Of a stretch of 44,039 nt of DNA, positions 25,077 to 28,161 are shown piece after piece; position 1 is the first letter of the stretch; each line of letters begins with the position of its first letter. Source of the DNA: Escherichia phage NHEP3; sequence record PQ511147.1, one strand, 5' to 3'. Position numbers and translations under genes: made by a program. The notes beneath the pieces are model-generated. The model saw only the letters and a list, made by a program, of their open reading frames with translations. It made no database searches and was not told where the DNA came from.

Positions 25077-25379
25077 ATGGCTTTCGGTGTCGCAACATGG
25101 GACGCGCAAGGGCGACCAAACAACTACGGGATCAAGCCCGTTTCGGTTGTCGGAATTATCAAACTGACTCAAGGTCAAACATGGGGGGCGTGGTCGTTCG
25201 ATATTCCGTCCGGTATGAAAGTAGGTTTTGCGGTTACGCTGGACGTAGGCGGCACTACGGTCGGTCGGGCGATCCGCGCCAGCGGGAACACGATAACAGT
25301 ATCTGCGGCAAACAGCGTCGGTATTGGAAACTACCCAGCATCAGAATGTGAAGTAGTGGTCTTTGTGGAGAAAGCGTAA
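25077..25379 (+). CDS. hypothetical tail-associated protein (100 aa)
   Basis: GGAGG Shine-Dalgarno; shares the motif FG(V/F)A(T/I)WDA(Q/S)G with the second half of the next protein. Confidence 0.5.
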   Translation: MAFGVATWDAQGRPNNYGIKPVSVVGIIKLTQGQTWGAWSFDIPSGMKVGFAVTLDVGGTTVGRAIRASGNTITVSAANSVGIGNYPASECEVVVFVEKA

Positions 25380-25381
25380 AA

Positions 25382-26053
25382 ATGGCAAACTTCGGCGCGT
25401 TAATCGATAACAACAACGGCAACCCATTCGTCACGCCAAACTCAACGCCATTCGTGCTCTATGCTAAGGTGTCCGCAAATTCAGTTGACGCAGGCGCGGA
25501 TTATAAGACGGCTAGTGGCGCAGTGGATATCCCCGCGAACTATCCGGCGATGGTGTTTATGCGGTCAAACAACCGTTGCGTCCTGGCGGCGTCACGATCA
25601 GGTAACAGGATTATATTCAGCGGAAGCATTCAGGGGCAGAATAACCCGCATTTTACCGTCACGGCGTACATATTCGCGCGATTCCCGCAACCGCTGCCGA
25701 GATGGGGGTTTGCTATTTGGGACGCCAGCGGGACTTGCATACTAACCAACGAGAGCAAGGTACTCACCGATTTAGTCACAGTTGGCAGCTTCGGCAATAA
25801 CGGAGGGATTAACATAGACCAGACGCTGCCGGGTAAGTACGCGGTGTCGCCAATGTTAATGGGGGCTACTCTTATTCAGATATTCGTACAAGGGCAGCCG
25901 CAGATTATCCAGATCTCGGCAGGGGCGGGGGCTTACGACAACGGAAGCGGCACTCGCATTAACGCAGTCGCTACGCAGGCTGGGTCTGGTAGCATCGCCG
26001 GGTATCAAAACACCGGCGTTGCGCTGACCGCAATTAACGTTGATGGGATATGA
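25382..26053 (+). CDS. hypothetical tail-associated protein, candidate receptor-binding component (223 aa)
   Basis: Gly/Asn/Ser-rich beta-type composition; sits downstream of J and next to the opposite-strand lipoprotein gene. Confidence 0.45.
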   Translation: MANFGALIDNNNGNPFVTPNSTPFVLYAKVSANSVDAGADYKTASGAVDIPANYPAMVFMRSNNRCVLAASRSGNRIIFSGSIQGQNNPHFTVTAYIFARFPQPLPRWGFAIWDASGTCILTNESKVLTDLVTVGSFGNNGGINIDQTLPGKYAVSPMLMGATLIQIFVQGQPQIIQISAGAGAYDNGSGTRINAVATQAGSGSIAGYQNTGVALTAINVDGI

Positions 26054-26073
26054 AAAAGCCCCTTTCGGGGCTT
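26052..26073. terminator. bidirectional terminator hairpin
   Basis: Stem AAGCCCC / GGGGCTT with an A run on one side and a T-rich run on the other, between convergent genes. Confidence 0.55.
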
Positions 26074-26290
26074 ATTTACAGGTTGTGCTTTTGAAGTGGT
26101 CAACCGACACATACTGGAAGTTGAAGGGGTATCCCGCCCGTAACATTTTATGACCGCTAACGTCGGCAACCCCAAACACAGGGACGGAATACTCCATACC
26201 ACTATTCATGTATGTTGCGTCGCAGATTTTAGACGGCATGTCGGCACAACCCGCCAACAGAACCGCACAAATCATAATTAAAGTTTTCAT
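26072..26290 (-). CDS. small lipoprotein (72 aa), candidate superinfection-exclusion / receptor-masking protein
   Basis: AGGAGA Shine-Dalgarno before the ATG at 26290; signal peptide MKTLIMICAVLLAGC with lipobox LAGC; transcribed against the tail operon. Confidence 0.6.
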   Translation of the reverse strand: MKTLIMICAVLLAGCADMPSKICDATYMNSGMEYSVPVFGVADVSGHKMLRAGYPFNFQYVSVDHFKSTTCK

Positions 26291-26370
26291 GGTATCATCT
26301 CCTATATTTGGTTGGGTTTTAGTATTGCACCGCTCAACCAAGAATGCAACCAATTTATGAGGATTCAGCT

Positions 26371-28161
26371 ATGGCGGCGGGTACACTATCCGTAACGAAT
26401 AACAGCAAGGCGGTAGTCGGTGTCGGCACGACGTTCACCGCGTTTAAAGATGGCGACTTCTTAACGCTGGTGGTGGGGCAAGTCCCTTACACTGTTGCTA
26501 TCGCGTCCGTCGAAAGCGACACCGCGCTTACGCTGGTGCTGCCGTTCGACGGCCCAACGGCAACCGGCCTGGCATGGGATGGCGTTGCGCGCGATACCAT
26601 GTCACTGGCGACGATGGGCGTTACCGTACAGGCACAGAAAGCATTGCGCTTGATGATTGCGGATGAAAACAACTGGCGTGCAATCTTCGGCGACGCGGAA
26701 GAAATCACGGTAACTCTACCAAACGGGCAAGTTATGCAGGGTATGTCGTGGGGCTATCTGTCATCCTTGATGAAGCAAGTTGACCCCGTTGAAATGCGCG
26801 ACCTGCAACAAAAAACCCGCGAGTCTGAGTTAGCCACGTGGCATTATCGGCAGGAGGTCGAAGGCTTCAAGACCGAGACGGCAGGCATCCGCGACGCCAC
26901 TAACCAAATTAAGACGGAGACGCAGGCGATCCGCGATGCCACTAATACCATCAAGACGCAGACGGACCAGATTAAGACGGATACGCAGGCCATCAAGGAC
27001 CAGACGAACCAGATTAAGGCGGATACGCAGGCTATCCACGACGCCACCAATATTATCAAGACGCAGACGGACCAGATTAAGACTGATACGCAGGCCATCA
27101 AGGACCAGACTGAGCAGATTAAGACTGACACTGGCGTTATTCGCGACGAGGCTGAACAATTCAAGAATGAGATCGACCCGTCGAGATTTCTGGCAAAAGC
27201 CAGCAACCTTAGTGACGTTTCTGATGTTGCGGAAGCACGCACCAATCTTGATCTCGACCGCTTCAAGCAGTCTACCAATGACACCACAATTTTAGGACCT
27301 GGTGGCGCGTACACATTCTTCGTGGCGTCTAGCGACTGGGGTTACTTTAACAGCTCAACATTTGAACGCGTGGCGTTACCTGTTCAGAGTGGCGGCACAG
27401 GTGGCACTACAACATTTACGGCGTGTCGTAGTCTCCGTGCAATGAACTACGACCACACTATCAACACACTTTACGCTTCGCCGGAACTTGACACGGGCAT
27501 TGGCTTTTATAGCGCTGATGTGTCACAGTGGCCCGGCGGCAACGGTGGTCCTTACACCTACGCCGAGATTATGACAATTGCCGAGGGTGGCGGCGGCCCT
27601 GGCAGTTCAGGTAACTGGTCACAAATTGGTTTTTCAACTATAACAAATCAAGCCCCGCGCTATCGGCAACGTACGTCCAACCCAGCGCTTATCACTAACT
27701 GGCGGGATTTCTTAATTCGTGACCTAAACACCACTGTCGACAGCAACGGTTTTATCAAAGTCGCGTCACCTATTGTGAAAATCAAAGGCGACGGATCCGC
27801 AGAGTTTAACGACGAGTCCGAGGGTTGCTCGGTAACACGGGTGTCCAAAGGTGTTTATGTCATATCGGGTTGCCTGGGCCTCAATTCCGACGCGTCCTGG
27901 GGTGGGGTCAATGGCGGCTTTGAGATACCGGTGGACGTAAACAAGCAACCTTTGTTGTGGCTGGATTATGCGGTATTGAATGATGGTAGTATTGAGATTC
28001 GCACTTACCATCGAACGCATACTAACGCGCCTGCGTTCGCGAGAAATATTATCGATGGTATCGAAGACGGCGACCCGGTAGATATTCCACCGAGCACCTA
28101 CATTTCGGTCCGTGTGCAAATGCCCGCAACAGGATTGGAAACAGCCACGAGTAGTGCGTAG
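26371..28161 (+). CDS. tail fiber protein with a coiled-coil repeat region
   Basis: GAGGA Shine-Dalgarno before the ATG at 26371 (ORF opens at 26344); tail-fiber-type N-terminus MAAGTLSVTNNSKAVVGVGTTF; about 8 tandem 11-residue repeats (QIKTDTQAIKD-like). Confidence 0.75.
   Translation: MAAGTLSVTNNSKAVVGVGTTFTAFKDGDFLTLVVGQVPYTVAIASVESDTALTLVLPFDGPTATGLAWDGVARDTMSLATMGVTVQAQKALRLMIADENNWRAIFGDAEEITVTLPNGQVMQGMSWGYLSSLMKQVDPVEMRDLQQKTRESELATWHYRQEVEGFKTETAGIRDATNQIKTETQAIRDATNTIKTQTDQIKTDTQAIKDQTNQIKADTQAIHDATNIIKTQTDQIKTDTQAIKDQTEQIKTDTGVIRDEAEQFKNEIDPSRFLAKASNLSDVSDVAEARTNLDLDRFKQSTNDTTILGPGGAYTFFVASSDWGYFNSSTFERVALPVQSGGTGGTTTFTACRSLRAMNYDHTINTLYASPELDTGIGFYSADVSQWPGGNGGPYTYAEIMTIAEGGGGPGSSGNWSQIGFSTITNQAPRYRQRTSNPALITNWRDFLIRDLNTTVDSNGFIKVASPIVKIKGDGSAEFNDESEGCSVTRVSKGVYVISGCLGLNSDASWGGVNGGFEIPVDVNKQPLLWLDYAVLNDGSIEIRTYHRTHTNAPAFARNIIDGIEDGDPVDIPPSTYISVRVQMPATGLETATSSA
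26870..27150 (+). repeat. tandem 33-bp repeats, in frame within the tail fiber gene
   Basis: Repeated cagattaagac(g/t)ga(t/c)acgcaggc(c/t)atc... units encoding hendecad repeats. Confidence 0.7.

Follow-up and report, generated by a model that had tools for sequence, protein, structure and literature searches.

A probable FhuA-type receptor and exclusion cassette in the Dhillonvirus Escherichia phage NHEP3

The cor cassette of phage NHEP3

The sequence examined here is the 44,039 nt record of Escherichia phage NHEP3 (PQ511147.1), the whole of which is referred to as the window. Very probably, the genes found between those for the J-like central tail fibre and the lateral tail fibre are the FhuA-type receptor cassette ("cor cassette") of a Dhillonvirus, with a 223 amino acid (aa) protein as the terminal receptor-binding protein (RBP) for FhuA and a 72 aa product, Cor, as the exclusion lipoprotein. 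The locus is the already well-known cor cassette of FhuA-using coliphages, and this example is genuine but ordinary. A first-pass annotation, made from the sequence alone, had placed a receptor-blocking lipoprotein beside receptor-binding candidates at this position, and both halves of that proposal are supported, by the match of the lipoprotein to the Cor family and by the homology of its neighbours to N15 gp22 and gp23.

About 1.6 kb at the locus matches many Dhillonvirus genomes from end to end with 92-94.5% DNA identity, among them those of YD-2008.s, B2, Henu5_1, bob and mckay. A tail module typical of Dhillonvirus, in which minor tail proteins are followed by a 1139 aa J-like protein, makes up the neighbourhood together with the lateral tail fibre gene and a minus-strand DNA-metabolism block. 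Because of this identity and the Dhillonvirus-type flanking genes, the window is assigned to Dhillonvirus, as a virulent HK578/SO-1-like Escherichia coli siphophage. The gene order J, 100 aa protein, 223 aa protein, cor and tail fibre was found in T1, phi80, HK022, ES18, the Hanrivervirus aaroes and six Dhillonviruses (n=11), and was the same in every FhuA-dependent phage examined. The features of the locus are listed in Table 1.

Table 1. Features of the cor cassette and its surroundings (coordinates in the window; strand; description)
24893..25039, plus strand: tip of the J-like central tail fibre (C-terminal residues 1092-1139) and stop codon; travels with the receptor cassette
25043..25058, plus strand: terminator-like GC hairpin and T-run directly 3' of J; called by the scanner; putative attenuator before the RBP genes
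25077..25379, plus strand: gene for the 100 aa small beta-sandwich protein, homologue of N15 gp22 and T1 ST32; candidate tail-tip accessory protein or adaptor
25382..26053, plus strand: gene for the 223 aa all-beta protein, homologue of N15 gp23 and T1 ST31; most likely the FhuA-binding RBP
26056..26073, both strands: GC hairpin between the convergent 223 aa protein gene and cor; terminator for cor, weaker in the tail-operon direction
26072..26290, minus strand: cor, precursor of the Cor/Llp-family exclusion lipoprotein (72 aa; 57-residue mature protein); phrog_1119, and identity to T1, HK022, ES18 and phi80
26246..26290, minus strand: part of cor coding for the signal peptide and lipobox, MKTLIMICAVLLAGC; right-hand recombination joint of the receptor cassette
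26298..26303, minus strand: Shine-Dalgarno sequence of cor, AGGAGA; read from the sequence and kept in four Dhillonviruses
26321..26353, minus strand: putative cor promoter, TTGGTTGCA element with -35 TTGCAT, 17 bp spacer and extended -10 TGcAATACT; identified by eye
26371..28161, plus strand: lateral tail fibre gene, divergent from cor; PF25670 and tail-fibre PHROG matches; context, outside the cassette

The exclusion lipoprotein

In the mechanical list of open reading frames (ORFs), the frame of the lipoprotein is extended to a TTG at 26353. Translation from the start annotated in relatives, the ATG at 26290, gives a 72 aa product that begins with MKTLIMICAVLLAGC and continues ADMPSK (N-terminal sequence of the precursor, MKTLIMICAVLLAGCADMPSK...). 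The first-pass annotation had described a 72 aa lipoprotein on the minus strand with an LAGC lipobox and a good Shine-Dalgarno sequence, and this description holds: the sequence AGGAGA (26303..26298) lies 7 nt 5' of the ATG, and the N-terminus, which reads MKTLIMICAVLLAG up to the Cys-Ala pair, is hydrophobic (up to 2.9 in a Kyte-Doolittle window of 12 residues) and ends in the lipobox LAGC, with Ala at position +2. Under the +2 rule, Ala at this position leads to Lol-dependent sorting to the outer membrane, and the product of cor is predicted to be an outer-membrane lipoprotein.

Cor matched phrog_1119, "Cor superinfection exclusion protein", over its full length (E 6.5e-28). A tblastn search with Cor matched 246 phage records, and the identities to known Cor proteins were 51% for T1 (2e-14), 44% for HK022 (4e-9), 44% for ES18 (1e-11) and 40% for phi80 (1e-9). 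The relatives in GenBank already have the 72 aa ORF annotated as Cor. Cys23, Cys71 and the stretch RAGYPFNF aligned across 16 mature Cor sequences, with the RAGYPF core conserved, and the lipobox Cys15 together with Cys23 and Cys71 is invariant across Cor proteins and T5 Llp. By sequence, the 72 aa ORF is a member of the Cor family of superinfection-exclusion lipoproteins.

A word-indexed homologue search with Cor recovered 6 close relatives only. An exhaustive phmmer search with mature Cor against 1.8 billion representatives gave 12 matches, all of them Cor-like bar one spurious repeat protein, and Llp was absent from these. We also note that the T5-like Enterobacter phage KKP_3711 carries a Cor-family lipoprotein (4001-4216) among tRNA genes and away from the RBP gene; it was matched by a Cor-only hidden Markov model (HMM) with E 4e-9 and by phrog_1119 with E 1.1e-14.

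Assignment of the receptor

The 100 aa protein, the 223 aa protein and Cor are 97, 98 and 94% identical to their counterparts in phage bob, and 93, 95 and 90% identical to those of Bas15 (PaulFeyerabend). Phage bob is FhuA-dependent by experiment (PMC10373560), as are Bas15, Bas16 and Bas17 according to the S5 Table of the BASEL collection (PMC8594841). Because identities of this order (90-98%) link the three proteins to the FhuA-dependent phages bob and Bas15, the terminal receptor of the phage is probably FhuA.

Two FhuA alleles are present in Dhillonvirus. Relative to the window, the second (allele B, in KarlBarth and JLBYU60) is 53% identical in the 223 aa protein, 71% in the 100 aa protein and 86-93% in Cor. 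The RBP genes appear to have been exchanged, or to be diverging, independently of cor within the genus.

The 100 aa and 223 aa proteins

The 100 aa protein matched phrog_557 (E 1.5e-31) and the 223 aa protein phrog_425 (E 7.7e-67). Their homologues are, respectively, ST32 and ST31 of T1, gp22 and gp23 of N15, gp22 and gp23 of phi80, and gp30 and gp31 of ES18; those in T1, phi80, HK022 and ES18 are 31-74% identical. No family was found in Pfam for any of the three small proteins (100 aa, 223 aa and Cor), and searches of PDB sequences with single sequences and with family profiles gave no match for the 223 aa protein and noise only for the 100 aa protein. AlphaFold 2 (AF2) models of both are confidently all-beta, with pLDDT scores of 88.4 and 84.7, the confidence being low for the first ~20 residues of each. 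The model of the 223 aa protein had no significant Foldseek match in the PDB; negative Foldseek and HHpred results for these proteins have also been reported elsewhere, where a role related to superinfection exclusion was proposed (PMC13164509).

The FhuA-associated genes that follow gpJ have been treated as an RBP locus by Maffei 2021 (PMC8594841), by Matusiak 2025 (PMC12309495) and in bioRxiv 10.64898/2026.04.02.716166, and AF2-multimer and AF3 models support an RBP role for the 223 aa type of protein (PMC12309495; bioRxiv 10.64898/2026.04.02.716166). The 223 aa protein has no signal peptide or transmembrane segment, its gene is on the tail-operon strand, and the J tip co-varies with the cassette across phage families. 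It is most likely the FhuA-binding RBP.

Two other interpretations of these proteins were considered. In the first, both are host-envelope proteins that aid Cor in superinfection exclusion and are not parts of the virion. Their genes are indeed strictly linked to cor in FhuA-using phages, PHROG calls both families membrane proteins and places phrog_425 in its "moron" category, and the absence of structural matches is what accompanied the exclusion-related role put forward in PMC13164509. However, neither protein has a signal peptide, a lipobox or a transmembrane segment (the maximum hydropathy over 19 residues is 0.84 for the 100 aa protein and 1.21 for the 223 aa protein), their genes lie directly 3' of J on the strand of the late tail operon, the J tip co-varies with them, and computed membrane-transfer energies are much weaker for these proteins than for Lom (PMC12309495). 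We regard an envelope location as very unlikely. In lambda, as here, a J-like central fibre sets the terminal receptor and a gene of "moron" envelope type is found 3' of J, but in lambda it is J itself that binds LamB, and Lom, unlike the 100 aa and 223 aa proteins, is a beta-barrel that bears a signal peptide (PMC12309495).

In the second, a trimer of the 100 aa protein caps J and is the actual FhuA-binding element, and the 223 aa protein acts as a chaperone of assembly or as an adaptor, and may not remain in the virion. A trimer of the 100 aa type of protein could also be docked on the J tip, where it was likened to the C-terminal domain of lambda J (PMC12309495), and the small protein is the more conserved of the two among FhuA phages (74% identical to phi80, against 48% for the 223 aa protein), as expected if the receptor is conserved. 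This higher conservation is explained equally well by an adaptor role at the J tip, itself conserved, however, and it was the "hand-like" 223 aa protein that AF2-multimer consistently favoured at the tip and at FhuA (PMC12309495). Furthermore, a BtuB-using group of Tempevirinae has a homologue of the 223 aa protein and Cor without the small protein (PMC13164509). This assignment of roles is considered unlikely, and the 223 aa protein is retained here as the probable RBP, with the 100 aa protein as its accessory or adaptor.

A motif shared by the two proteins

The first-pass annotation had noted the motif (F/W)G-x-A-x-WDA-x-G in both proteins and had taken it to suggest a partial duplication. 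The motif itself is real: FGVATWDAQG, residues 3-12 of the 100 aa protein, matches WGFAIWDASG, residues 109-118 of the 223 aa protein, the sequence is conserved in both families, and alignment of the two family profiles with hhalign gave 13 columns with E 1.3e-5 and a probability of 81%. Outside these columns there was no alignment. An extended duplication relating the two proteins is accordingly rejected at the sequence level, as the alignment is confined to 12-13 columns (E about 1e-5), with this hairpin motif as their sole similarity. A duplication of the two halves of the 223 aa protein was rejected at the same level, the N-terminal and C-terminal halves aligning over 23 columns with E 0.0045 and a probability of 8%.

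Weaker copies of the motif were found at the N-terminus of the 223 aa protein (E 0.0045) and at the N-terminus of the RBP of the Dhillonvirus Oekolampad (GILIDYNDGRP; E 0.089). In the looser form G-x-x-I/W-D-x-x-G-x-P, the motif is at the N-termini of the 100 aa protein, the 223 aa protein and the Oekolampad RBP, and once more inside the 223 aa protein. It forms a beta-hairpin in the AF2 models, with low confidence for the copies at the N-termini, whereas the one inside the 223 aa protein is within the fold. It is a reasonable guess that the motif is a shared hairpin for docking or assembly.

Boundaries of the cassette and comparison with other phages

Oekolampad (Bas18; MZ501095, 4450-5800 compared) is the Dhillonvirus with which the cassette boundaries were located. 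It uses LptD as its receptor, and its cassette contains the RBP bas18_0025 (PDB 9RPT and 9RQI) and the superinfection-exclusion lipoprotein bas18_0026, a homologue of Rtp45 (9RPS). One RBP of 321 aa replaces the 100 aa and 223 aa proteins, the minus strand carries the RBP gene as well as the exclusion gene, and neither the mature exclusion protein nor the J tip is related in sequence to that of the window. In this cassette (4655-5844) the lipoprotein gene comes first, so that the RBP gene is transcribed against the tail operon from a cor-type promoter.

At the left joint, identity of J to that of Oekolampad is 84-100% as far as about residue 1092 and 22-33% beyond it, with 22% for the tip (residues 1092-1139). 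Against T1, phi80 and ES18, the identity is 57-69% for the final 48 residues of J and 31-39% for the 62 residues before them. At the right joint, the exclusion lipoprotein of Oekolampad begins MKTLIMICAVLLSGCA; its protein and DNA sequences are nearly identical to those of the window as far as the Cys-Ala codons and unrelated after them. From the lipobox through the Shine-Dalgarno sequence and promoter to the start of the tail fibre gene, the DNA of the two phages is nearly identical. FhuA-type and LptD-type Dhillonviruses thus have a common promoter, Shine-Dalgarno sequence and signal peptide, MKTLIMICAVLL(A/S)GCA, in front of mature exclusion proteins that are unrelated. Because identity breaks off in J and resumes at the lipobox, the exchangeable unit is placed at nt ~24893-26245, and takes in the tip of J, both RBP genes and the mature part of the exclusion protein. 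That the J tip co-varies with the cassette speaks for a physical contact of their products, in line with Figure S12 of bioRxiv 10.64898/2026.04.02.716166.

The closest layout outside Dhillonvirus is that of T1, where the cassette (ST33, which is J, ST32, ST31 and ST30, which is Cor) is equivalent to gp21-gp24 of N15 and gp21-cor of phi80. T1 has the same receptor, FhuA, the same gene order and similar sizes (101, 229 and 75 aa), annotated terminators after J (6257-6283) and between ST31 and cor, and cor in convergent orientation on the opposite strand. The identities to T1 are 47.5% (ST32), 47% (ST31), 49-51% (Cor) and 69% (J tip). T1 differs in having a Drexlerviridae backbone, with recombination genes and not a lateral tail fibre gene beyond cor. 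In phi80 and HK022, unlike here, cor and J share a strand.

It is possible, although we put it forward with some reserve, that the RBP families that follow gpJ share an ancestral beta-sandwich and a mode of docking on J, as would apply to the 223 aa protein and the 321 aa RBP of Oekolampad. The receptor would then be switched by a swap of a cassette of ~1.35 kb with joints at about residue 1092 of J and at the lipobox Cys codon, a fixed promoter and signal peptide would drive interchangeable mature blockers, and the G-x-x-I/W-D-x-x-G-x-P hairpin would be the docking or assembly element. In bioRxiv 10.64898/2026.04.02.716166 these RBP families are termed "unrelated". The Oekolampad RBP was also considered as a fusion of the 100 aa and 223 aa proteins, since their lengths add up; the weak hhalign matches are not colinear and a fusion is not claimed.

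Promoter and terminators

The element TTGGTTGCA is found 5' of cor at 26353..26345, and by eye a putative promoter can be read there with a -35 sequence TTGCAT (26349..26344), a 17 bp spacer, an extended -10 TG (26329..26328) and a -10 sequence AATACT (26326..26321). The -10 is flanked by two direct copies of TTGGTTG and one inverted copy, CAACCAA. The 80 bp intergenic region that separates cor from the tail fibre gene hardly varies among YD-2008.s, JLBYU60, bob and KarlBarth, and is almost unchanged in the LptD-type Oekolampad as well.

Exact copies of TTGGTTGCA number 11 in the 44 kb window, against ~0.3 expected for a 9-mer, and copies with at most one mismatch number 24, against 11.4 +/- 3 in shuffled sequences (Table 2). 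The copies often form pairs with a spacing of 14-31 bp, and are found on both strands 5' of the starts of non-structural genes, in a layout of TTGCAn, 17 bp and a TATATT-like sequence. The element has the look of a promoter or operator specific to the phage. A search of the phage literature for TTGGTTGCA found no account of it and returned unrelated primer sequences only. Because the putative cor promoter has TTGGTTGCA and the -35, 17 bp and -10 layout of the sites at non-structural genes, cor expression is probably early.

Table 2. Positions of TTGGTTGCA in the window
Exact copies: 428, 10236, 10250, 26345, 29386, 29399, 31058, 31075, 40571, 43792, 43823
Copies with one mismatch include: 34017, 37636, 37652, 43385, 43420

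Two hairpins border the RBP genes. That at 26056-26073, which the first-pass annotation called a bidirectional terminator, has folding energies of -13.5 kcal/mol (z -2.3) and -13.2 kcal/mol (z -3.1) on its two strands, but a T-run that the scanner accepts is found on the minus (cor) strand only, the plus strand reading TTATTTAC. It is a terminator candidate in the direction of cor and a plausible but weaker one for the tail operon. The hairpin at 25043-25058, after J, has a folding energy of -11.7 kcal/mol, which is not better than that of shuffled sequences (z -0.7). It is kept in KarlBarth and Oekolampad, and so with both receptor types, and is annotated in T1 at the same place; it may set the stoichiometry of the tip proteins relative to J.

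Relationship of Cor to T5 Llp and a proposed mechanism

The lipoprotein had initially been described as Llp-like, in an arrangement mirroring that of T5. T5 Llp itself matches phrog_1119 (1.1e-19), and PHROGs thus treats Cor and Llp as one family. In a pairwise BLASTP comparison, Cor and Llp were 35% identical over 40 aa (E 3e-5), in an alignment that includes the signal peptide, and a phmmer search of the PDB with the 72 aa protein gave Llp (8a60_B) as its sole match, at E 0.8. A profile built with Llp included matched Llp trivially and was dropped as circular. Llp and Cor have been reported to be ~20% identical with a conserved disulphide (PMC9586334), their predicted folds to be similar (bioRxiv 10.64898/2026.03.26.714494; PMC13164509) and their AlphaFold models to have the same fold (template modelling score 0.69; PMC13164509). 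The precise family is thus Cor, and the label "Llp-like" probably suits both its function and its fold.

The likeness to the Llp/pb5 system of T5 extends to a small outer-membrane lipoprotein gene that adjoins the RBP gene on the opposite strand, has its own promoter and targets FhuA, and to a lipobox and two structural cysteines that align. The llp gene is divergent from oad, whereas cor is here convergent with the RBP genes, and pb5, at 640 aa, is unrelated to the 100 aa and 223 aa proteins, which have no sequence match in the PDB. The layout is exactly that of T1. In addition, infection by T5 is TonB-independent, whereas T1 and phi80 require TonB (PMC10373560).

Building on the gene structures, families, synteny and receptor allele observed in the window, we propose the following course of events. 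Late in infection J would be made, and some transcripts would pass the hairpin after J and give the 100 aa and 223 aa proteins, possibly at a reduced level. Having no export signal, these would assemble non-covalently on the cassette-specific C-terminal ~48 residues of the J trimer and so be incorporated into the virion, where the 223 aa protein would be the terminal RBP that contacts FhuA, the outer-membrane ferrichrome transporter, and the 100 aa protein an accessory or adaptor. The cor gene would be transcribed from its own sigma-70-like promoter, presumably active early and independently of the late operon. Like Llp (PMC9586334), Cor would inactivate FhuA from the periplasmic side, by an allosteric mechanism. 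The infected cell would be protected from superinfection, and the progeny from adsorbing to debris.

Several points weigh against parts of this scheme. The cor promoter was missed by a sigma-70 consensus scan (its -35 scores 3/6), and the sole match nearby overlaps the start codon; of the TTGGTTGCA-bearing promoter in the first-pass annotation, the element and the conservation of its region stand, without a call by the scan. Alignment of the 223 aa family with the Oekolampad RBP was non-significant (hhalign, E 0.089 over 13 columns). For gp22/gp23-type proteins, presence in virions and binding to FhuA are predictions from AlphaFold models in the literature. An HMM built from mature Cor sequences only missed mature T5 Llp, which scored 6.8 bits, the level of a decoy, and alignment of mature Cor with Llp by hhalign gave E 0.013 and a probability of 3%, neither being significant. 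Because the mature Cor profile misses Llp, transfer of the Llp mechanism rests on the predicted-fold similarity described in the literature. The molecular mechanism of Cor is described in bioRxiv 10.64898/2026.03.26.714494 as not yet elucidated.

The non-significant similarity of mature Cor to Llp and the statement of that preprint on the Cor mechanism would suit a mechanism for Cor that differs from that of Llp, for instance one acting via other outer-membrane proteins or by a block of DNA entry, and not by allosteric closure of FhuA from the periplasm. We think such a mechanism improbable. Cor and Llp agree in size, in being lipoproteins and in both cysteines, and PHROG groups them together. 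In addition to the shared fold, AF3 docks Cor on the periplasmic face of FhuA with an interface predicted template modelling score (ipTM) of 0.84 (PMC13164509), and Cor has been reported to inactivate the functions of FhuA (Uc-Mass 2004, as cited in PMC13164509). Inactivation of FhuA from the periplasmic side is kept as the working mechanism of Cor.

Relation to earlier work

The phage's choice of outer-membrane protein and the way in which an infected cell is closed to competitors are both determined at this locus, and it is of use for the prediction of receptors from genomes, for the design of phage cocktails and for host-range engineering. For the window, it allows a confident call of FhuA as terminal receptor and of Cor-type exclusion. 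Everything proposed in the first-pass annotation is already described. Recognition of the cassette and of its link to FhuA dates from 2006 (Wietzorrek et al., as cited in PMC13164509), the concept of an RBP locus was generalised in 2021 with Dhillonvirus included (PMC8594841), in silico models of the tail tip are available for a Dhillonvirus (PMC12309495), and the kinship of Cor and Llp has been described (PMC9586334; bioRxiv 10.64898/2026.03.26.714494; PMC13164509). What is added here is small, namely the precise joints of the cassette and documentation of the phage-wide TTGGTTGCA promoter element.

Neighbouring gene and database records

The lateral tail fibre gene beyond cor encodes a PF25670 C-terminal domain (E 1.1e-58) and also matches tail-fibre PHROGs. 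Its mechanical ORF begins at 26344. The Shine-Dalgarno sequence AGGA at 26360 and the annotation of relatives (YD-2008.s) favour the ATG at 26371, and the earlier ATG (26344) falls within the cor promoter region.

Some records that match the locus are labelled "Campylobacter phage". MG065648 (A144) has up to 94% DNA identity, and MG065688 (A110b), MG065637 (A15b) and MG065640 (A14b) have 41-55% protein similarity to it. The "Campylobacter" host labels of these four records, or their assemblies, are probably wrong.

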